In this document: in pieces, positions 3,949-26,357 of the stretch | Layout of the letters: every line of letters starts with the position of its first letter | Position numbering within the stretch: position 1 is the first letter of the stretch | DNA from: a virus | Lineage: Duplodnaviria; Heunggongvirae; Uroviricota; Caudoviricetes | IMG/VR virus record: IMGVR_UViG_2541047815_000002 | Coordinates: 1-26,357 of that record | Length of the DNA: 26,357 nucleotides | Direction: 5' to 3' (one strand) | Translations under genes and position numbers: made by a program | The notes under the pieces: model-generated | Databases searched by the model: none | What the model was told of the DNA's origin: nothing | What the model saw: only the letters and a program-made list of their open reading frames with translations

Positions 3949-4802
3949 GCACCATCCTGAAATGGGCGGGAAATAAAACTGCCATAATGTCCGAACTAAA
4001 AAAACATCTTCCTGCTGGCCCGCGACTGGTTGAACCTTTCGCGGGTTCCTGTGCTGTGATGATGGAGACGGATTATCCCAGCTATCTGGTTGCGGATATT
4101 AATCCTGATTTAATCAACCTTTATAAAAAGGTTGCCGCTGATTGTGAATCGTTTATATCTCGCGCCAGAGTTTTATTTGAGATCGCAAACAGGGAGGTGG
4201 CTTATTACAACATAAGGCAGGAGTTTAATTACTCAACTGAAATTACTGATTTCATGAAAGCGGTATATTTCCTGTATCTCAATCGTCACGGTTACCGTGG
4301 TTTATGTCGCTATAACAAGAGCGGGCATTTCAACATTCCCTACGGTAATTATAAAAATCCGTATTTCCCTGAAAAAGAAATTCGCGCATTTGCAGAAAAG
4401 GCCCAGCGAGCAACGTTTATCTGCGCCAGCTTTGATGAAACGCTGGCGATGTTGAAGGCGGGGGATGTGGTGTATTGCGATCCGCCGTATGACGGTACGT
4501 TTTCCGGCTATCACACTGACGGCTTCACTGAAGATGACCAGTATCACCTGGCATCTGTTCTTGAACATCGGTCATCAGAAGGACATCCGGTCATTGTTTC
4601 TAACAGTGACACATCCCTGATCCGTTCGCTGTATCGCAATTTTACTCACCACTACATCAAGGCAAAACGCAGCATCGGTGTGGCAGCTGGCGAGGGTAAA
4701 TCAGCAACAGAAATCATTGCTGTTTCCGGGCCGCGCTGCTGGGTGGGATTTGATTATTCGCGTGGCGTGGATAGTTCTGCCGTGTACGGAGTACGTGCAT
4801 GA
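3945..4802 (+). CDS. dam: Dam-type DNA N6-adenine methyltransferase (orphan, no cognate nuclease seen)
   Basis: ATG at 3945 with GGAGG upstream. N-terminal SAM-binding motif (KWAGNK ... EPFAGS) and the catalytic DPPY tetrapeptide at 4479-4490. Translationally coupled to gene A (ATGA overlap at 4799-4802). Confidence 0.85.
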
Positions 4803-7213
4803 GTCATGCCGATATGAACAACTGCTGCGGCTTTAACGAAGCTGCCGCATCGTTCTCATGGAACAGCTCGAAAAAGGCCATTAACCCTTATCTGGACCCG
4901 GTGGAAGTTGCGCCGGTTTCTACGCTTTCAAACCTGATCACTCTGTACGCTGCCGATAACGAGCAGGAACAGCTGCGCCGTGAGGCGCTGAGTGATCAGG
5001 TCTGGGAGCGTTATTTCTTTAATGAATCCCGTGATCCTGTCCAGCGCGAAATGGAACAGGATAAGCTCATTAGTCGGGCAAAGCTGGCGCATGAGCAGCA
5101 GCGTTTTAATCCGGATATGGTCATTCTGGCGGACGTCAACGCCCAGCCTTCCCATATCAGCAAGCCGCTGATGCAACGTATTGAATACTTCAGCAGCCTG
5201 GGCAGGCCAAAGGCTTATTCCCGCTATTTACGTGAGACGATTAAGCCATGTCTGGAACGACTGGAGCATGTACGCGACAGTCAGCTATCTGCATCTTTTC
5301 GCTTTATGGCAAGCCATGAAGGGCTGGACGGCCTGCTGATCCTGCCTGAAATGAGTCAGGATCAGGTGAAACGCCTGTCCACCCTGGTAGCTGCGCATAT
5401 GAGTATGTGCCTTGATGCCGCTTGTGGCGATTTGTATGCCACCGATGACGTTAAGCCAGAAGAAATCCGCAATACATGGGAAAGGGTGGCAGCGGAAACC
5501 CTGCGTCTGGATGTCATCCCGCCTGCGTTTGAGCAACTCCGTCGGAAAAGAAACCGCCGTAAACCCGTGCCCTATGAACTCATTCCGGGTTCGCTGGCGC
5601 GTATGTTGTGCGCCGACTGGTGGTATCGGAAATTATGGAAGATGCGTTGCGAATGGCGGGAAGAGCAGTTGCGTGCTGTCTGCCTTGTCAGCAAAAAAGC
5701 ATCTCCCTATGTCAGCTATGAAGCCGTGTTGCATAAACGTGAGCAGCGCCGTAAGTCGCTGGAGTTTTTCCGTTCTCATGAACTGGTGAACGAAGACGGC
5801 GACACGCTGGACATGGAGGATGTGGTAAACGCCAGCAGCAGCAACCCTGCGCATCGCCGCAATGAGATGATGGCCTGTGTTAAAGGTCTGGAGCTTATCG
5901 CGGAAATGCGCGGTGACTGCGCCGTTTTCTACACCATCACCTGTCCGTCACGTTTCCATTCCACGCTAAATAACGGCAGGCCCAACCCAACCTGGACAAA
6001 TGCGACGGTAAGACAAAGCAGTGATTATCTGGTCGGCATGTTTGCTGCATTTCGTAAGGCGATGCACAAAGCCGGATTGCGGTGGTATGGCGTGCGGGTG
6101 GCTGAGCCGCATCATGACGGTACAGTTCACTGGCACCTGTTGTGTTTTATGCGCAAAAAAGACCGCCGCACCATCACTGCATTACTGCGTAAGTTTGCCA
6201 TCCGTGAAGACCGCGAGGAGCTGGGCAATAACACTGGGCCGCGCTTTAAGTCTGAGTTGATTAACCCGCGCAAAGGTACGCCAACAAGCTACATCGCGAA
6301 ATACATCAGTAAGAACATTGACGGGCGTGGTCTGGCTGGCGAGATCAGCAAGGAAACGGGGAAATCCCTGCGTGATAATGCTGAATACGTTAATGCCTGG
6401 GCGTCTCTGCATCGTGTTCAGCAATTCCGCTTCTTTGGCATTCCGGGGCGTCAGGCTTACCGTGAACTGCGATTGCTGGCTGGTCAGGCGGCAAGGCAAC
6501 AGGGGGACAAAAAAGCAGGTGCGCCGGTACTGGATAACCCGCGCCTTGATGCCATTCTGGCTGCTGCTGATGCTGGTTGTTTTGCCACCTACATCATGAA
6601 GCAGGGTGGCGTACTGGTTCCCCGCAAATATCACCTCATCAGAACTGCTTATGAAATCAACGAAGAGCCGACCGCCTATGGCGATCACGGCATTCGTATT
6701 TATGGCATCTGGTCACCTATTGCAGAGGGCAAGATCTGCACTCATGCCGTGAAGTGGAAAATGGTTCGTAAGGCCGTTGACGTTCAGGAGGCGGCAGCCG
6801 ACCAGGGCGCTTGCGCCCCTTGGACTCGTGGCAATAACTGTCCCCTTGCTGAAAATTTGTACCAACAAGGGAAAGACAAATCAGCTGATGGGGATACCAG
6901 AACGGATATCACCCGTATGGATGACAAGGAGTTGCACGATTACCTGCACAGTATGAACAAAAAAGAACGCCGGGAACTGGCTGCAAGGTTACGCCTGGTG
7001 AAACCGAAACGGCGTAGAGACTACAAACAGCGAATTACAGACCATCAACGACAGCAGCTCGTCTATGAACTGAAGTCCAGAGGATTTGATGGCAGCGAGA
7101 AAGAGGTCGATTTACTCCTTCGCGGCGGCAGTATTCCGTCAGGAGCAGGCCTGCGTATCTTCTATCGGAACCAGCGTTTGCAGGAAGATGATAAGTGGCG
7201 GGATCTGTATTAA
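4799..7213 (+). CDS. A: Rolling-circle replication initiator (P2 gpA family endonuclease)
   Basis: 804-aa protein. HUH-type motif HWH at 6128-6136 and paired active-site tyrosines YIAKY at 6290-6304, as in P2 A and phiX174 A. Lies in the expected position after the early genes. Confidence 0.9.
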
Positions 7214-8304: not shown

Positions 8305-9423
8305 ATGTATCTTTTCAAGTATTACCGTCCGGACTTCTTCTTCGAGAAAGCTATTCGTTATAATGAATTATATTTTTCCGCTCCTGCGCAATTGAATGAT
8401 CCTAATGATCTCAATATAGATTATCGTTTTGATAATAAATTGAAATTATGGGATATTTTATTGCGTTCTCCTTGCGATAAATCCTATGAAAATTTGAGTC
8501 ACATATTAGATTTGAGTAATTTGAAGATACATAAGGGATTGAATCGTATTTTTAGAGGAAAAAAAATAAAAAGTAGCATTGAGTCATTAGATAGCCTGTT
8601 TGACTCACACGTTGATGAGATACGTAAGATCATAAATGATGGTTTACTACCTATCAATGTGATTAATTCCGCTATTTATGGGAATATTCCTGAACCACGC
8701 CAATTTTTGGTCTCACTTTGCGAGAACAGTATCAAAGAAAGGTTGTATAGGAAAATAGTTCCTGCAGTATTCAGTGTGTCATTTTCAGCTAATGCGTTAG
8801 ATCGTATGATGTGGGCGCATTATGCTGCAGGCTTTAGTGGTTGTGTTGTGATTTATGAAACGCAGGATTTTAATATTAATGGCGTGCCACATCCTGGAAT
8901 GAAGCTAAGAGAAAATTTATTTTCATCAGATAAATTTAATTTTCCAGTTAAGCAAATAAAATATAGTAATCAGGCTAAAGAGGTTTCACTTCTAGACCCA
9001 AGCGCAAATGTTGCAGAGTTATTTTTAACTAAAAATAGATTTTGGAGATATGAAGCTGAATATCGAATGTTTATTCCAGAGGCAAATGCAGGAATAGGGA
9101 GTGAGCGGCATGTTCAAAGACGCGTAAATCGAAATATTGGACATATTTTTCATCATGATGCTAATGTTGTTAAAGGGATCATTTTTGGTCCTAGAATGTG
9201 TGAAATGAAAAAAGAAAGCATATGGAATTGTATCAAGTCAAATATGGAGAATTCAAATTCAACAATATGTTATTTTTTTGACTCTGAGTTATCAGCATCA
9301 GGAAAGATTACTATTTCAAAAGGGCAACGAGCGGAAAAAATGAAAAATTTCCCTTTGTTCAGGAACAAGTTAAGTCAGACGGAAATGGCTAAAGTTTTGA
9401 AGGAAATTGGCATTACGAACTAA
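8305..9423 (+). CDS. DUF2971-like protein (372 aa), accessory cargo gene, candidate anti-phage/abortive-infection factor
   Basis: Lies in a strongly AT-rich island (by eye) that contrasts with the phage backbone. From memory it resembles the DUF2971 pattern: N-terminal LFKYYR ... LYFSAPAQLNDPND, then MWAHYA and RYEAEYRMF. It occupies the tin/old-equivalent hotspot downstream of A. Confidence 0.6.
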   Translation: MYLFKYYRPDFFFEKAIRYNELYFSAPAQLNDPNDLNIDYRFDNKLKLWDILLRSPCDKSYENLSHILDLSNLKIHKGLNRIFRGKKIKSSIESLDSLFDSHVDEIRKIINDGLLPINVINSAIYGNIPEPRQFLVSLCENSIKERLYRKIVPAVFSVSFSANALDRMMWAHYAAGFSGCVVIYETQDFNINGVPHPGMKLRENLFSSDKFNFPVKQIKYSNQAKEVSLLDPSANVAELFLTKNRFWRYEAEYRMFIPEANAGIGSERHVQRRVNRNIGHIFHHDANVVKGIIFGPRMCEMKKESIWNCIKSNMENSNSTICYFFDSELSASGKITISKGQRAEKMKNFPLFRNKLSQTEMAKVLKEIGITN

Positions 9424-9488
9424 CCTAACAACAGTGCATGCCTATGCTGCCTGAATTTGCATGACCGTTTGAGGATCGTTTTTGCTAA

Positions 9489-9513
9489 GGCCCGCCAGAA
9501 CTGGCGGGCTTTT
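9489..9513 (+). terminator. Rho-independent terminator after the 372-aa cargo gene
   Basis: GC-rich hairpin (GGCCCGCCA / loop GAAC / TGGCGGGCT) followed by a TTTT run. Confidence 0.5.
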
Positions 9514-9558
9514 GCGTGGATCAGGCACCTGCATGAAAACCACTACACAAAGCGGGCA

Positions 9559-9577
9559 GGCGTGGCGGGGATACGAG
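9559..9577. other. Candidate cos (cohesive-end) core
   Basis: GGCGTGGCGGGGA matches the first 13 nt of the 186/P2 19-nt cohesive end as I recall it (GGCGTGGCGGGGAAAGCAT / GGCGAGGCGGGGAAAGCAC). It sits in a short GC-rich patch inside the AT-rich island. The distal 6 nt differ from memory, so this is uncertain. Confidence 0.35.
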
Positions 9578-9679
9578 CGCGCGCTAACTCATAAATCCTA
9601 GATTATTAGTGGATTTATCTCATTGAAATGTGCACTATTCCCAGCATTGAGTTGTACCAGATGTCTTTATGGAGGGACT

Positions 9680-11446
9680 GTGGCTTTTGTAACTGATATT
9701 CGGCTTGAAGATAATGCTATTGCTGCACCTGCGACAGCACAGGTTATGGCTCAGAGGCTAGGATCTGTATTACGTAAGAGATATGAAGAATTCATCCATA
9801 AAAGAGAGTGTGCACCAGGCCAAGCAGACTATGATGTAAAAATGGCTAGCAGGGCTTTAGCTGCATTCACTATGTATCAGTTAGGATGTGTGGATGATAA
9901 GTATGCAGGGGAGTCTGTATGTGATAGTAGTGAAGATGGTGGTATAGATGGAATAGCAATCAACCATAACGAAAAAATCGTTGTTGTTGTTCAATCAAAA
10001 TTTCACCAATCGGGAAACGGCACTTGGACAAGAGCCGATTTTATGTGTTTTAAGGATGCTTGTGAGAAGCTACAAAGTGAAAGATACGAATTATTTGATT
10101 CCATATTGCAAAATAAAAGCGGGGAAATAAGTGCGGCTTTAAGTAGTTTTGAATACAAGTTCATCTTTGCGATGGCGCATACAGGTAAAAAAGGTGCTGC
10201 AGAGGAAATATTAAATGATATGCGGGAATGGCAATATCAATTAAACGCTGCAGCTTTTACACCTGAGGATGAGCCTAAAGAGAACTGGGGATTTCAGGTT
10301 CATTTAATATCCTCTGAAGATATGATGCATTGGTTACAGAATGGCTCTCGAAATCAAATTGATCTTAACAGGGTTGAAATTGAGCGTTTTGGATTTTTGA
10401 ATGAACCATATCAAGCTTTTTACGGGGCTATTAGTGGTGATCAAGTTGCAGAATGGTGGGAAGAGCATGGTGCTCGATTATTTACAAAAAACATAAGGAA
10501 TATGCTTGGTAAAACAGAAGTGAATGAGGAAATAAAAAAGACAGCTATAGATAATCCTGATATGTTTTGGTTTTATAATAATGGGATTACTGTACTGGTT
10601 AAGGAAGTTGTTCCTCATAGACGAAACGCAGCTCCTAATATAGAGAGAGGGATTTTTGATTTTCGTGATGTAAGTGTCATTAATGGTGCACAAACAGTCA
10701 GTAGTATTGGCGCATGTAAAGATGCGCTTGGTGAAAACATATATAGACTCAAAGTGCCAGCTAGATTCATTGTTATAGATGATGATACTGATAATTTAAC
10801 TGCAAATGCAATTACAAAAGCTAACAATTTCCAAAATAGAGTATTGGGAAGAGATTTTGCATCGCAGCAGGCAGATCAACATAGATTGGCAAGGGAGTTA
10901 GTGCTTGAAGGATATCAATATCAGTTACTAAGAACAGATGAAGATCATTCACAGACAAATACGAAAGTCATTGACTTGGATGAGGCGCTCAATGCACTCG
11001 CATGTTTAAGTAAAAATAATACGGTTGTATCGACACTAAAATCAAATCGCGGTAGGTTTTTTGAAAATTTTGAAGGCTCTCTATATAAAACTATTTTCAA
11101 TCCAAGATTAAGTGGTTTAAAACTTATCAATACTGTTCTACATTTTAGAGTTATAGATAAGTTGATCGGTAAAACATTACTATCAGTAGATAAAACGACC
11201 CATAGTCGCAAGCATTTAATTATTACGCATGGTAATAGATACTATGCGTCTGTACTATTGAGCAACGTTTCTGGGATACATAATAGCTCAGAAATTCTTG
11301 TTCCAGATGAAAAAAATCTTTCCGAAGAATTAAGTGCATTAATTCAACGTGCTGAAGAGTACATTGAAGATAATTACCCGAATGCCTATCCGGCAAGATT
11401 TTTTGCAAATCCAACGAAAATACAAGAGTTATACGATAATGTTTAA
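9680..11446 (+). CDS. AIPR-like (abortive infection phage resistance family) protein with putative N-terminal PD-(D/E)xK-like motif
   Basis: Long ORF in AT-rich DNA. Start is uncertain: TTG at 9623, GTG at 9680 with GGAGGG upstream, or ATG at 9746. Motifs DGGIDGI ... VVVVQSK (D...QxK, nuclease-like) and NNGIT ... INGAQT, which I associate with the AIPR family. Followed immediately by a strong terminator. Confidence 0.55.
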   Translation: MAFVTDIRLEDNAIAAPATAQVMAQRLGSVLRKRYEEFIHKRECAPGQADYDVKMASRALAAFTMYQLGCVDDKYAGESVCDSSEDGGIDGIAINHNEKIVVVVQSKFHQSGNGTWTRADFMCFKDACEKLQSERYELFDSILQNKSGEISAALSSFEYKFIFAMAHTGKKGAAEEILNDMREWQYQLNAAAFTPEDEPKENWGFQVHLISSEDMMHWLQNGSRNQIDLNRVEIERFGFLNEPYQAFYGAISGDQVAEWWEEHGARLFTKNIRNMLGKTEVNEEIKKTAIDNPDMFWFYNNGITVLVKEVVPHRRNAAPNIERGIFDFRDVSVINGAQTVSSIGACKDALGENIYRLKVPARFIVIDDDTDNLTANAITKANNFQNRVLGRDFASQQADQHRLARELVLEGYQYQLLRTDEDHSQTNTKVIDLDEALNALACLSKNNTVVSTLKSNRGRFFENFEGSLYKTIFNPRLSGLKLINTVLHFRVIDKLIGKTLLSVDKTTHSRKHLIITHGNRYYASVLLSNVSGIHNSSEILVPDEKNLSEELSALIQRAEEYIEDNYPNAYPARFFANPTKIQELYDNV

Positions 11447-13210: not shown

Positions 13211-14976
13211 CAAAAAATCTCCACAATATTGCTGGTATTGGCGGATTCGCCCTGCAGCGGTTCGTTAAACAGTGCGTGCATCGTTGCCCAGGCCAGATCG
13301 GCGTGGCTGGCTTCTTCGCTGCGGCTGGCTTCATAGGTTGGGCGGTTGCCGCTCGCGGTGGTGGCGCGACGGATTGCCATGAATGACTGCGCTATGTCGG
13401 TGTGTCCGGCGTCAAACTCCAGACGGCGGTGGCTGATAATGTCGTAGGCCTTGAGTACCAGGGCGTTTTTAACATTGGGGTTATAGACAAACTCCCGGAC
13501 GGCTGGAAAAAACGCTTTCACGTTCTCGTAAACCCCGTGGCCGACACCTGTCGAGTCGATGCCGATGTAGGTCACGTTGTACTGCTCGGTCAGTTTTTTG
13601 ATGGCGTCAGCCTGGGCGCGGAAGTCCATCCCACGCCACTGGTGACGCTCAAGAATGCGGAACTTACCACCAGGCACGGCTGGCGGTGCCACCACTACGC
13701 ATCCGGCGCTGTCGCCGTTTTGCGTACCTTTTGCCGGGTCATAACCGATCCACACTTCGCGCCAGCCAAACGGGCGCAGAGCCAGTGCATGAAAGTCGGT
13801 CCAGACTTCCCAGCTGTCCACCATGCACGCCTGCAGCTCGCTGAGCGGGAACACGGACGCGAGATCGTCCACAAACTCGCACATCAGCAGGTTCTGGTAT
13901 TCGTCCGGGCTGTACTCCATGCGCAACTGGTCAAGGTCGAACAGGTTACAGCCGCCGCGCACCGCATCTTCCACGGTGACTATCTGGCGGTATTGCCCGT
14001 CTGCGCACAGCAGGCCGGGGGCCAGATTGCTGTGGGACAGGTCGATGTCCACCTTGTCGGCCTTGTTGCGCCCACGGTTGAACAGCGCACCGGACCAGAA
14101 CGGATAAGCACTGTGTGTCAGGCTGGATGGCGTGGAAAAATAGGTTTGTCGCCATTTTTTGTGAATAGCCATACCGGAAGCCACTTTGCGCAGCTCCTGG
14201 AATTTCGGTATCCAGAAATATTCATCCAGATACAGGTTGCCGTGATAACTCTGGGCCGTGCGGGCATTGGTGCCGAGGAAGTAAAGCGTGGCTCCGTTAG
14301 GAAGCACCATCGGATCGCCTTTCAGCTCCACCTCGACTTCTTTGGCGAAGTCTATGATGTACTGCTTAAAGACGTGAGCCTGTGCCTTACTGGCAGAAAG
14401 GAAAATCTGGTTACGTCCGGTAAGCAGGGCGTCAATCAGGGCTTCACGGGCAAAGTAAAAGGTCGCGCCGATCTGGCGTGACTTCAGCAGGTTGCGGATG
14501 CGGTTGGTTTTTCCGGCTTCCCACCAGTGGCGCTGGTAGTTGAACATGGAGGAATGGAAAATTTCTTCCAGCTTCTCAATCTGTTCATCGGTGAAAACAT
14601 TCTTTTCCGGCTGACGGCGCGGGCCTTTGTTGCGGTTGGCGACGTTAGGGTTTAAGTCGGCTTCGTTACCGCCATTGTTAAACTTGCCGATCCGCGCGTG
14701 GCGCTCCGACTGGCGCGCCAGCAGGTCAATTTCTTTGAAATCTTTCCCTTCTTTGTGCTCCTTCATAATGAGCTGGCAGTAGCGTGCGGCGGTGGTGAGC
14801 TGCATCTGATCCAGCGGCCCATAGTCACCCCACTTGTCGCGTTTTTTCCAGCTGTGAACGGTTGCAACTTTCTCGCCCAGCATTTCAGCAATGCGGGCTA
14901 CGCGGTATCCCTGAAAGTACAGCAGCATGGCCTGCCGACGGGGATCGAGATCTGCGGGTGTCAGTGTGGTGTTCAT
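13210..14976 (-). CDS. P: Terminase large subunit, ATPase (P2 gpP family)
   Basis: 588 aa. N-terminal HTH-like region, deviant Walker A KSRQIGAT (lambda gpA-like), Walker B LYLDE, C-terminal nuclease region. Divergent from O across the late-promoter region. Confidence 0.9.
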   Translation of the reverse strand: MNTTLTPADLDPRRQAMLLYFQGYRVARIAEMLGEKVATVHSWKKRDKWGDYGPLDQMQLTTAARYCQLIMKEHKEGKDFKEIDLLARQSERHARIGKFNNGGNEADLNPNVANRNKGPRRQPEKNVFTDEQIEKLEEIFHSSMFNYQRHWWEAGKTNRIRNLLKSRQIGATFYFAREALIDALLTGRNQIFLSASKAQAHVFKQYIIDFAKEVEVELKGDPMVLPNGATLYFLGTNARTAQSYHGNLYLDEYFWIPKFQELRKVASGMAIHKKWRQTYFSTPSSLTHSAYPFWSGALFNRGRNKADKVDIDLSHSNLAPGLLCADGQYRQIVTVEDAVRGGCNLFDLDQLRMEYSPDEYQNLLMCEFVDDLASVFPLSELQACMVDSWEVWTDFHALALRPFGWREVWIGYDPAKGTQNGDSAGCVVVAPPAVPGGKFRILERHQWRGMDFRAQADAIKKLTEQYNVTYIGIDSTGVGHGVYENVKAFFPAVREFVYNPNVKNALVLKAYDIISHRRLEFDAGHTDIAQSFMAIRRATTASGNRPTYEASRSEEASHADLAWATMHALFNEPLQGESANTSNIVEIF

Positions 14977-22824: not shown

Positions 22825-23422
22825 TCTGCTGCCACCGGGTTCAACTTCACTGGAGCGCCGACTGGCGCAAACCTGTAGCGGGATTTCTGATCTGCAGGTG
22901 CCGCTGCGTGACTTGTGGAGTCCGGCTACCTGTCCGGTCAGCTTCCTGCCTTATCTCGCCTGGGCGTTCTCTGTGGATCGCTGGGACGAGGGCTGGACAG
23001 AAAGCGTCAAACGCCAGGTAGTGAAGGATGCTTTTTATATTCATCAGCATAAAGGAACCACCAGTGCCGTGCGGCGGGTGGTGGAACCGTTCGGATTCCT
23101 GATCCGCATTATTGAGTGGTGGCAGACCGGAGAAACACCGGGCACGTTTCGCCTGGATATCGGCGTGCAGGACCAGGGCATCACTGAAGATACCTATCTG
23201 GAACTTGAGCGGCTGATAAGCGATGCCAAACCATGTAGCCGTCACATGATCGGCATGTCCATCAATCTGCAGACCAGCGGTCCGCATTGGGTGGGGGCCG
23301 CCAGCTATCTTGGCGAAGAAATCACGATCTATCCGTATATCAACGAAACAATTATTTCTGGCGGCACCGCGCATGAAGGCGGGGCGGTCCATGTTATTGA
23401 CACAATGAGAGTGAATCCATGA
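22817..23422 (+). CDS. I: Baseplate protein I
   Basis: 201 aa, overlaps the J stop. Position matches P2 I. Confidence 0.85.
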   Translation: MNSLLPPGSTSLERRLAQTCSGISDLQVPLRDLWSPATCPVSFLPYLAWAFSVDRWDEGWTESVKRQVVKDAFYIHQHKGTTSAVRRVVEPFGFLIRIIEWWQTGETPGTFRLDIGVQDQGITEDTYLELERLISDAKPCSRHMIGMSINLQTSGPHWVGAASYLGEEITIYPYINETIISGGTAHEGGAVHVIDTMRVNP

Positions 23423-24948
23423 GCACAAAATTTTATACCCTGCTGACGGATATTGGCGCGGCGAAACTTGCCAGCGCCGCCGCGCTCGGTGTGCCGCTAA
23501 AAATTACCCATATGGCGGTCGGCGATGGCGGCGGAGTATTGCCAACGCCAGACTCAAAGCAGACTGCACTGGTAAATGAGAAACGCCGGGCTGCGCTGAA
23601 TATGCTCTATATCGACCCGCAGAACAGCAGCCAGATTATTGCCGAACAGGTGATCCCTGAAAACGAGGGCGGTTGGTGGATACGTGAAGTGGGCTTGTTT
23701 GATGAGTCCGGGGCATTGATTGCCGTGGGCAACTGCCCGGAAAGCTATAAGCCGCAACTGGCTGAAGGTAGCGGGCGCACTCAGACCGTGCGCATGGTGC
23801 TGATTACCAGCAGCACGGACAATATCACCCTGAAAATCGACCCTGCCGTAGTGCTGGCAACCCGCAAGTATGTGGATGACAAGGCACTGGAGCTGAAGGT
23901 GTACGCGGATGATCAGATGGCAAAACATCTTGCCGCACCGGACCCGCATTCACAGTATGCACCCAAAGAAAGTCCGACGTTTACCGGGACACCCAAAGCG
24001 CCAACGCCAGCCGCAGGGAATAACACCACGCAGATTGCGACCACCGCGTTTGTTCAGGCGGCTCTGACGGCTCTTATTAATGGTGCGCCAGCCACGCTGG
24101 ACACGCTGAAAGAAATAGCCGCAGCCATTAACAATGATCCGAAATTCAGTACCACCATTAACAATGCGCTGGCACTGAAAGCGCCGCTGTCGAGTCCGGC
24201 ACTCACCGGAACGCCAACCGCACCTACTGCGGCACAGTCGGTCAACAATACACAGATTGCCACCACGGCATTTGTGAAATCGGCGATTGCGGCAATGGTG
24301 GGTTCTGCACCTGCGGCACTGGATACACTGAACGAACTGGCGGCAGCGCTGGGGAATGACCCGAACTTTGCCACGACAATGCTTAATGCGCTGGCAGGTA
24401 AACAACCGCTGGACAATACGCTGACTAATTTGAGTGGAAAGGATGTAGCTGGTCTTCTCACATACCTTGGTTTGGGAGAAGGTTCAGCATTACCTGTTGG
24501 TGCGCCTGTTCCGTGGCCTTCAGAGACACCTCCAACAGGCTGGCTGAAATGCAACGGGGCGGCTTTTTCTGCTGAAGAATACCCGGAACTGGCAAAGGCT
24601 TACCCGACAAATAAATTGCCTGATTTACGAGGTGAATTTATTCGTGGCTGGGATGATGGGCGCGGTATTGATACAGGACGTGCTTTATTGAGCCTTCAGG
24701 CTGGGATGCTGGAAAAGCACCGTCATATTGTTGTTGCCAATGATGGTTACGACACAAAAGATGAATGGGAACTGGCTACGATTTTCAAAAAGACATACAC
24801 ACAAGGACGGGGACTTGATGCCACAAATACAGGAGGGAGTCTGATCCCATCACCGACACTTCATTCACGAGGGAGTATCGGTAATACTGGCGGGAGTGAA
24901 ACCCGTCCACGAAATATTGCATTTAACTTTATCGTGAGGGCTGCATAA
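23419..24948 (+). CDS. H: Tail fibre protein H (constant N-terminal part plus invertible C-terminal part with tail-collar-like domain)
   Basis: 509 aa. Internal tandem repeats of about 70 aa (roughly 23968-24402, each with GTP.APT ... NNTQIATTAFV ... LDTL ... NDP.F). C-terminal PTGWLKCNGAAFSAEEYPELA resembles a phage tail-collar motif. Confidence 0.85.
   Translation: MSTKFYTLLTDIGAAKLASAAALGVPLKITHMAVGDGGGVLPTPDSKQTALVNEKRRAALNMLYIDPQNSSQIIAEQVIPENEGGWWIREVGLFDESGALIAVGNCPESYKPQLAEGSGRTQTVRMVLITSSTDNITLKIDPAVVLATRKYVDDKALELKVYADDQMAKHLAAPDPHSQYAPKESPTFTGTPKAPTPAAGNNTTQIATTAFVQAALTALINGAPATLDTLKEIAAAINNDPKFSTTINNALALKAPLSSPALTGTPTAPTAAQSVNNTQIATTAFVKSAIAAMVGSAPAALDTLNELAAALGNDPNFATTMLNALAGKQPLDNTLTNLSGKDVAGLLTYLGLGEGSALPVGAPVPWPSETPPTGWLKCNGAAFSAEEYPELAKAYPTNKLPDLRGEFIRGWDDGRGIDTGRALLSLQAGMLEKHRHIVVANDGYDTKDEWELATIFKKTYTQGRGLDATNTGGSLIPSPTLHSRGSIGNTGGSETRPRNIAFNFIVRAA
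24455..24480. repeat. Gin/Pin/Cin-type inversion crossover site (26 bp, imperfect palindrome) inside H
   Basis: TTCTCACATACCTTGGTTTGGGAGAA. Half-sites TTCTCACATACC and TTCTCCCAAACC (reverse complement of the right half) resemble gix/cix/pix-type sites. The site encodes LLTYLGLGE of H. Confidence 0.6.
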
Positions 24949-25550
24949 TGGATAACGCCGTATTAAATAGCGAGCTTATTGCCACGAAGGCGGGGAATAT
25001 TACCGTCTATAACTATGATGGTGAAACTCGGGAATATATTTCCACTTCAAATGAATATCTTGCCATTGGTGTCGGTATCCCTGCATATTCCTGTTTAGAT
25101 GCCCCTGGCACACATAAGGCGGGTTATGCTATCTGCCGTTCGATGGATTTAAATTCATGGGAATATGTGCCAGATCATCGCGGTGAAATCGTCTATAGCA
25201 CCGAAACAGGAGAATCGAAAGAAATCACAGCTCCGGGTGATTATCCTGAAAATACAACCACTATCGCCCCGTTAACGCCATACGATAAATGGAATGGTGA
25301 GAAATGGGTGACAGATACCGAGGCACAGCACGGCGCAGCAGTAGATGCAGCAGAAGCACTGCGCCAGTCGCTGATTGATACTGCAATGGCCTCCATCAGT
25401 CTGATTCAACTGAAATTACAGGCCGGACGGAAGCTGACGCAGGCAGAAACAACCCGCCTTAACGCTGTGCTGGATTACATTGACGCGGTGACGGCAACAG
25501 ATACCAGCACAGCGCCGGATGTCATCTGGCCTGAACTGCCGGAGGCGTAG
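24948..25550 (+). CDS. G: Tail fibre assembly protein (Tfa, P2 gpG-like)
   Basis: 200 aa directly after H. C-terminal region resembles the tail-fibre-assembly domain shared with the opposite-strand paralog (LDYIDAV ... APDVIWPELP vs LDYLDAL ... APDIEWPTPP). Confidence 0.8.
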   Translation: MDNAVLNSELIATKAGNITVYNYDGETREYISTSNEYLAIGVGIPAYSCLDAPGTHKAGYAICRSMDLNSWEYVPDHRGEIVYSTETGESKEITAPGDYPENTTTIAPLTPYDKWNGEKWVTDTEAQHGAAVDAAEALRQSLIDTAMASISLIQLKLQAGRKLTQAETTRLNAVLDYIDAVTATDTSTAPDVIWPELPEA

Positions 25551-25974
25551 GCCATTCAATATCTGGCGCACCGGAAGTATCGATCAGCTCCAGTGCGTCC
25601 AGATAATCCAGCCACAAATTATATTGCGCCAGTTCATCACCTTTCAGACGACCAATAGCGGCTTTACCGGGCCATTGCTTACTGTTCATGTATTCGTTGG
25701 CCTGGTTAATTAGTAGCTGTCTTTCTGATTCAGTAATTTCAATAAGCTCTTCATGAGTAGGTGGAGGAATATCTGCCCACGTAGGTAGTCCATCCTCTCC
25801 GGCAATACGGACTTTTCCTTGTGGCGGTTCAGCCATAAACTCACTGACAATATTTTGATTCACCTCCTTAGCATCTGATAAATCCCATCCTACTGATTTA
25901 TATTTATCAATCATATCCACAGGGAAAAAAGCATTATGCCTGGCACTATAAACATATTCGTTCATATAAATCAC
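25522..25974 (-). CDS. Alternative tail fibre assembly protein (Tfa') in inverted orientation
   Basis: 150-aa minus-strand paralog of Tfa, convergent with G. This is the typical arrangement inside an invertible host-range segment. Confidence 0.75.
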   Translation of the reverse strand: MIYMNEYVYSARHNAFFPVDMIDKYKSVGWDLSDAKEVNQNIVSEFMAEPPQGKVRIAGEDGLPTWADIPPPTHEELIEITESERQLLINQANEYMNSKQWPGKAAIGRLKGDELAQYNLWLDYLDALELIDTSGAPDIEWPTPPAVQAR

Positions 25975-25985
25975 CCTGAATAAAA

Positions 25986-26357
25986 TTACTCACCAACAGC
26001 CCACCAACTGTAATGCATAGATACCGTGTCGCTGGTTGATGACGTTCTGTAAGCAGAATTAAAGCCGGTTAACGTAGGGCCTTCTGCAGTCATCACGAAC
26101 CCTCGCCCAGCGCCTAAAGGCGCACCGCCATCACCAGAATGGGTAAGAATGGCGCAGTCCGCTTTTTTAGGGAAAGGGATAGGAAATGTAATCCTCATTG
26201 TTTGCGTCGATAATTTCGGCATAGCCTCACCTCGACCATATTGCAGAATTTTACCGTTGGGTAATTTCATCCATCCATCACCACTGGCAAAAGAAGCCAT
26301 GTCCGGTATCTGATTTTCCCCTGTTCCCACACCCCGTTTCGCTGCTTCTCCCAAACC
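25986..26357 (-). CDS. Alternative tail-fibre C-terminal segment (promoterless; expressed only after inversion)
   Basis: Minus-strand ORF with no start of its own. Its reading frame runs through the partner inversion site at the window end (encoding ...GLGEAAKRG...), so inversion would fuse it in frame to the constant part of H at LGLGE. Confidence 0.65.
   Translation of the reverse strand, partial: GLGEAAKRGVGTGENQIPDMASFASGDGWMKLPNGKILQYGRGEAMPKLSTQTMRITFPIPFPKKADCAILTHSGDGGAPLGAGRGFVMTAEGPTLTGFNSAYRTSSTSDTVSMHYSWWAVGE
26346..26357. repeat. Partner inversion site (partial, truncated by window end)
   Basis: TTCTCCCAAACC is an exact match to the first 12 nt of the reverse complement of the 24455-24480 site. 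Confidence 0.55.

Follow-up and report, generated by a model that had tools for sequence, protein, structure and literature searches.

Can the tail-fibre gene near the right end of a viral sequence exchange its own tip? The sequence in question is IMG/VR record IMGVR_UViG_2541047815_000002, a stretch of 26,357 nucleotides that was analysed at its full length and is called the window in what follows. Toward its end, the tail-fibre gene H is followed by a tail-fibre assembly gene, tfa, on the same strand and, on the opposite strand, by a second assembly gene and a second fibre tip. An earlier note, made from the letters alone, had read this arrangement as an invertible host-range segment, bounded by crossover sites of the Gin/Pin/Cin type, whose inversion would swap the receptor-binding tip. 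The analysis reported here supports that reading: with high confidence, a P2/186-like prophage of Escherichia coli here contains an invertible tail-fibre segment of the Pin/Gin/Cin (Din) type, about 1.89 kb long and with two states, of which the window includes the body, the left arm and the first 12 nucleotides of the right arm. The sites, their core, the cassettes and the reading frame can all be seen directly, as can both natural products of inversion and, in near-identical prophages, the invertase next to the right site, and the locus is of a type already known and widespread.

The left crossover site lies inside H, at positions 24455..24480 (no strand is assigned to it), and reads TTCTCACATACCTTGGTTTGGGAGAA. 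It can be decomposed as TTCTCACATACC TT GGTTTGGGAGAA, two halves of 12 nucleotides around a core dinucleotide TT at 24467-24468; the halves are symmetric at 10 of 12 positions about the central TT, which confirms the 26-bp imperfect palindrome first described from the sequence. The right crossover site, also without a strand, is cut by the end of the window, where only its first 12 nucleotides, TTCTCCCAAACC, are present at 26346..26357. These are the exact reverse complement of positions 24469-24480, as the earlier note had it; one more nucleotide pairs exactly, which makes an inverted repeat of 13 nucleotides (pair I3, 24469-24481 versus 26345-26357).

By itself, an inverted repeat of 13 nucleotides is unremarkable and not above chance, because a second perfect pair of this length, I2, is found within the same 3 kb, and because matches to the 12-mer occur at background level: with at most 2 mismatches, there are 4 in the window versus 2 expected. 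A consensus, TTCTCNNAAACCNNGGTTTNNGAGAA, was derived from the sites of public records, namely Mu gix (gixL, gixR), P1 cix (cixL) and e14, and the window was scanned with up to 3 mismatches allowed, with 100 shuffles as control. The scan yields a single match, at 24455-24480, with 1 mismatch (19/20 specified positions), and no match in any of the 100 shuffled sequences, where 0 were expected. The non-random element is the full 26-bp site, not its repeat. In the region of this left site, at window positions 24467-24482, the 16-nt repeat TTGGTTTGGGAGAAGG is also found verbatim. Matches to the half-site consensus number 5, versus 1.6 expected, a count reached in 4 of 100 shuffles. Two isolated ones, at 132-143 and 13523-13534, lack the other half of a site and stand at chance level, even if the latter agrees with the half-site consensus TTCTCGTAAACC at every position.

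What lies past position 26357 can be read in close relatives. The nearest is the prophage of E. coli ST130 (NZ_CP043478.1), which has 10 differences in the last 8,958 positions of the window (99.9% identity). As a further proxy for an extension of the window, we used contigs encoding exactly the Tfa protein of the window (8 places shown, 7 of them P2-like); the tfa gene of ST130 differs from that of the window by two nucleotides. The right site is complete in ST130 and in 8/8 of the exact-Tfa contigs, so that the missing part of the partner site, expected by the earlier note, is recovered in relatives, not in the source genome. Its full form is TTCTCCCAAACC AA CGTTTATGAAAA. The core AA on the + strand lies at positions 8959-8960 of locus L001, in the 99.9%-identical relative, and corresponds to would-be window positions 26358-26359, outside the window. 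When the left and right sites of ST130 are aligned in inverted orientation, they have in common TTGGTTTGGGAGAAG, including the central dinucleotide: both sites have the same asymmetric 2-bp core, the right one being taken from the 99.9%-identical relative. In the source genome itself, a continuation ...AACGTTTATGAAAA past position 26357 would complete the right site. There is no third site in the window or in the 38.7-kb prophage region of ST130, which has exactly two, and the switch is a simple one with two states because only two sites exist in that whole region.

The genes between the sites are those that the earlier note had named, a fibre tip and a Tfa on the + strand and an alternative Tfa and tip on the - strand, and Pfam supports each assignment. 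Gene H is an open reading frame of 509 amino acids at 23419-24948 on the + strand. Its constant part, about 349 codons at 23419..24466 (+), is transcribed in both orientations, and has the Pfam domain Phage_tail_fib, a P2-type fibre N-terminus, at amino acids 1-150. Downstream of the site comes the expressed variable tip, at 24481..24948 (+), which is StfE-like and has a Collar domain (Pfam Collar at H amino acids 361-408); its tail-fibre assembly chaperone, TfaE-like and 200 amino acids long, follows at 24948..25550 (+), with a Pfam Caudo_TAP match at 7.6e-32.

On the - strand, an alternative tail-fibre assembly chaperone, annotated in ST130, occupies 25522..25965 (-), with Pfam Caudo_TAP at 4.1e-29; it has 147 amino acids from the RefSeq ATG, in a frame that reaches 25974 (150 amino acids), and is silent in the orientation of the window. 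The alternative tip cassette, at 25986..26345 (-), has a Gp53-like C-terminal domain (Pfam Gp53-like_C, 1.8e-13) and 119 amino acids after the motif GLGE. No start lies within the segment for this cassette, which becomes fused in frame to H upon inversion and whose frame is open through the site and past the end of the window. Each tip has its own Caudo_TAP chaperone, and the two chaperone genes, on opposite strands, converge with an overlap of 29 nucleotides at their 3' ends, at window positions 25522-25550. The two proteins end in ...PDVIWPELPEA and ...EWPTPPAVQAR, encoded, each with its stop, by opposite strands of this overlap. In the interval that separates the right site from the invertase gene, a scan for consensus promoters on the - strand, directed into the silent cassette, found none; such a scan is weak evidence, but consistent with a silent cassette that would be promoterless.

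Is the reading frame kept when the segment is turned around? The segment of ST130 was inverted in silico at the core dinucleotide; measured from core to core, it is 1,891 nt long, or about 1.89 kb. In the native orientation, H reads ...TYLGLGEGSALP... and stops at 509 amino acids, with the Collar tip. In the inverted orientation, it reads ...TYLGLGEAAKRG... and stops at 473 amino acids, with the Gp53-like tip, and is intact. The frame is kept across the site in both orientations, and the claim that inversion preserves it holds for both proteins.

The inverted product also exists in nature. The flipped ST130 locus, used as a query of 3,700 nt, has one contiguous match in E. coli ECONIH5, at 99.9% identity with 2 mismatches in 3,700, and both junctions of ECONIH5 are exactly as predicted from the flip. 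Among complete E. coli genomes, with a coverage of at least 80%, 100 have the native orientation versus 76 the flipped one. Within the seven exact-Tfa P2-like contigs, 5 are in the orientation of the window and 2 are flipped; in the flipped ones, L012 and L013, the fusion gene H of 473 amino acids is called. These counts, together with the ECONIH5 match, bear out the idea of an inversion that swaps the tip. In the RefSeq annotation of ECONIH5 (NZ_CP026202.1, L003 3020-4441), the flipped H is split into an "incomplete" pseudogene and a gp53-like gene. This split is an annotation artefact that stems from the inversion: the fusion frame of 473 amino acids is intact.

A serine invertase had been expected just beyond the window. 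In ST130, a gene for a serine recombinase of 188 amino acids starts 55 nt past the right site, and the sheath and tube genes come after it. The protein has the Resolvase (2e-53) and HTH_7 (1e-15) domains, with Ser9 in the motif YVRVSTNDQ, and its identity is 85% with PinE, 77% with Cin and 75% with Gin; its best match among solved structures is a 193-amino-acid chain labeled "DNA-invertase", 3uj3, at 2e-92. A gene of 188 or 190 amino acids with Resolvase and HTH_7 domains adjoins the right site in 7/7 of the exact-Tfa P2-like contigs, and ST130, MB20 and ECONIH5 each have an intact recombinase gene of one of these two lengths.

In the Din family, the reaction needs Fis at an enhancer located in the 5' end of the invertase gene. 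The equivalent of the P1 cin enhancer (+19 to +90) in the invertase gene of ST130 is 78% identical to that of P1 and 88% to that of pinE, and the same bases encode the conserved catalytic N-terminus. An alignment of the 5' 120 nt of four invertase genes, combined with a crude scan for Fis motifs, is not discriminating, the region being a coding one that is conserved anyway. Catalysis by the invertase, as well as dependence on Fis and on the enhancer, are what established knowledge of the family would predict.

The following mechanism can then be proposed. The small serine invertase, encoded directly downstream of the right site and outside the window, would pair the two inverted 26-bp sites and cut them at their common 2-bp core (TT/AA), and rotation of the subunits would invert the segment, while the late promoter and the constant 5' part of H would stay in place. 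In the orientation of the window, H would end in the StfE-like tip with the Collar domain, followed by the TfaE-like chaperone; in the other orientation, it would end in the Gp53-like tip, followed by the second chaperone. A single lysogen population would release virions of two receptor specificities. This consequence of the two tips for host range is expected by analogy with Mu and P1, and agrees with a published statement on E. coli loci (PMC4272514).

Several observations weigh against this reading, or at least against its extension to the genome from which the window was taken. Beyond the end of the window lie the last 14 nt of the right site (its core and its distal half) and the gene for the invertase, and the presence of all of these is deduced from relatives. 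When the whole window is compared with complete E. coli genomes, the best identities are 99.1-99.2%, with a cargo region that differs. An exact 56-mer that contains a SNP specific to the window has no match in the collection of species-representative genomes. The evidence on orientation, as drawn from assembled genomes, consists of differences between genomes and not of heterogeneity in one culture of this strain. Finally, one of the exact-Tfa contigs, L008, has no called recombinase gene by its right site, and a pin-like frame appears disrupted when the sequence is read; decayed switches of this kind thus appear to exist. It is natural to ask whether the window itself contains a fossil switch, whose sites and cassettes were inherited while the segment is frozen and the adjoining invertase absent or inactivated. 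The state of an invertase that lies beyond the window is not visible there, and the cassettes and right site of L008 are the same as here. However, the recombinase is intact in all seven exact-Tfa P2-like contigs as well as in ST130, MB20 and ECONIH5, both orientations are common among close relatives, and further invertases of the Pin type present in a cell can act on such segments in trans and invert them (PMC12529663); a frozen segment is, on balance, very unlikely. The uncertainty that is left concerns only the window's own genome: what state its invertase is in, and whether its switch is active. A more radical doubt is that the match of 12 to 13 nt at the end of the window is a coincidence, and that there is no inversion at all. 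A perfect inverted repeat of 13 nt is indeed not rare at this scale, as the pair I2 and the counts of half-site-like 12-mers given above attest. But the full left site matches an independent consensus with 0 matches expected, the right site completes in every relative to a 26/26 match with the e14 pix site, the site coincides exactly with the point where either of two fibre tips is joined in frame, and there are genomes that contain the exact inverted product: the coincidence is effectively refuted, and almost certainly wrong.

The last alternative accepts the inversion and questions its purpose. The switch might mainly serve the lysogen, inversion picking which tip protein is made by the prophage in order to block the receptors of other phages. 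Such a role was reported for the homologous P segment of e14, which has the same inverted repeat, with the chimera StfE2 acting against phage T2 (PMC12529663). In ST130, a short open reading frame with its ATG in the spacer by the invertase gene runs across the right site and on into the silent tip, and is annotated as a gp53-like protein of 136 amino acids in the orientation of the window and as a Collar protein of 172 amino acids in the flipped one. Yet the prophage looks complete, unlike e14, and the classical role in virion host range suffices; no consensus promoter of the - strand leads into the silent cassette, and the Shine-Dalgarno spacing before the ATG of the spacer frame looks poor, at least by eye. 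That the lysogen is the main beneficiary is unlikely. A weaker form, in which the cassette that is silent with respect to H may, besides the role in virion host range, be translated alone in the lysogen from the spacer frame, the free tip blocking the adsorption of competing phages, strikes us as quite doubtful too. If true, the switch would double as a defence toggle controlled by the invertase, as claimed for StfE2 of e14.

Apart from these alternatives, two other kinds of inversion were considered and rejected. Inversion of the RecA type between the repeats was set aside on general knowledge, since the identity in common is only 15 nt. A shufflon has more than two short repeats and Rci, a tyrosine recombinase, and takes on many arrangements; there are only two sites here, next to a serine recombinase.

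The homology of other phage genomes to the window breaks at the site: matches end at query positions 1080-1082 (window 24479-24481), or begin at query position 1068 (window 24467). Since the breaks fall exactly at the site, the segment is also an exchangeable module in its behaviour, and the crossover site marks the limit at which phages exchange cassettes. Klebsiella phage Kp4865-2 and Escherichia phage Cartapus have only the constant part in common with the window; Citrobacter phage Omnitron and Escherichia phage pro483 have only the segment.

The contig L008 mentioned above (GCA_012289705.1, contig AASDBO010000017.1, positions 4231-7040) belongs to an e14-like element whose baseplate genes are of the Mu type and whose fibre N-terminus is short, of the StfP type. 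It carries the exact Tfa of the window, a tip with a Collar domain, the chaperone of 147 amino acids, a Gp53-like cassette of 136 amino acids and the same right site. One and the same pair of cassettes thus occurs on unrelated prophage backbones.

The backbone of the window is that of a P2-like phage. The RefSeq annotation of the ST130 prophage has the late genes in the P2 order V-W-J-I-H-G, then sheath and tube, and its gene set covers replication, head, lysis, baseplate, sheath, tube, tape measure, D and ogr. The start of the window has genes for an integrase, CI and CII (CP76), and H has the Phage_tail_fib domain; on this gene content, the phage is classed as temperate and P2/186-like (Peduoviridae-type). 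The window starts exactly at the stop codon of the integrase gene, which encodes 376 amino acids on the - strand (positions 1-1131, Int_N and Phage_integrase). Upstream of the portal gene, at 8305-11446, are two cargo genes, in what is apparently the classical old/tin hotspot of P2. The first encodes a protein of 372 amino acids with a marginal DUF2971 match and a PADLOC candidate, PDC-S31, at 3e-23; the second encodes an AIPR/AbiU-like abortive-infection protein of 607 amino acids (Pfam AIPR, 7e-35; PADLOC AbiU, 7e-25). In ST130, a gene of the "LA2681 family HEPN" replaces the first cargo gene between the replication endonuclease and portal genes, a cargo swap.

What does the switch mean beyond this phage? 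Its import goes little further than correct annotation: the segment is a textbook bet-hedging device, by which one prophage would yield virions of two receptor specificities. Automatic annotation mislabels the flipped form, the 473-amino-acid H of ECONIH5 being recorded as a "partial" pseudogene and a separate gp53-like gene, and the two orientations are best treated as one allele in assemblies and comparative analyses. The crossover site, moreover, is the exact limit of the tip and chaperone cassettes common to unrelated phages (P2-like, e14-like, Klebsiella and Citrobacter phages), a boundary that could be useful for the prediction or the engineering of host range.

Among known systems, the closest relative is the P segment of e14, in E. 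coli K-12, with its invertase PinE. The right site is identical at 26/26 positions to the site beside pinE, and the left one at 23/26 to the site inside stfP, with the same repeat of 15-16 nt, TTGGTTTGGGAGAAG(G). PinE is, as seen above, 85% identical to the invertase of ST130; the Tfa of the window is 91% identical to TfaE, and the expressed tip is StfE-like, with 60% identity and its first 70 amino acids near-identical. The C-terminal half of the alternative chaperone is 54% identical to TfaP, and tfaP and tfaE converge with the same overlap of 29 nt. The segments are also of similar size, 1,891 nt here versus 1,827 nt for e14, both measured from core to core (the published size for e14 is 1,797 bp). 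The differences concern the backbone and the second tip: the host here is an apparently complete P2/186-like prophage, whereas e14 is defective, and the constant part is a P2 H-type fibre with a Phage_tail_fib N-terminus, in place of the short StfP N-terminus of e14. The second tip, with its Gp53-like domain, has only 26% identity with that of StfP, and the StfE type is on in the window while the StfP type is on in the K-12 reference. In culture, the P segment of e14, flanked by TTGGTTTGGGAGAAGG, is inverted by PinE, PinQ and PinR (PMC12529663).

The resemblance to the G segment of Mu with Gin, and to the C segment of P1 with Cin, is one of organization: a constant 5' part of the fibre gene, a 26-bp site within the gene, two opposed cassettes of tip and chaperone, a second site and an adjoining invertase. 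The sites conform to the common consensus TTCTCNNAAACCNNGGTTTNNGAGAA, and the ST130 invertase is 75-77% identical to Gin and Cin. However, the segment is 1.9 kb long here, versus about 3 kb in Mu and about 4.2 kb in P1, the phage backbone and the tips are unlike, and in P1 the cin gene is on the other side of the segment. The P2-like prophage loci of enteropathogenic E. coli (EPEC) E2348/69 and of Fels-2 in Salmonella, with its Fin, compared here by family and position, have in common with the window the phage family and the position between H/G and the sheath gene FI. One locus of EPEC E2348/69 differs in having three repeats and four states, where the present one has two sites. Both e14 and two P2-like prophage fibre loci of EPEC E2348/69 undergo phase variation in clonal cultures, as established by sequencing and polymerase chain reaction (PMC4272514), and a survey notes that this P2 hotspot commonly contains invertases, next to which genes are inverted (bioRxiv 10.1101/2024.10.15.618418).

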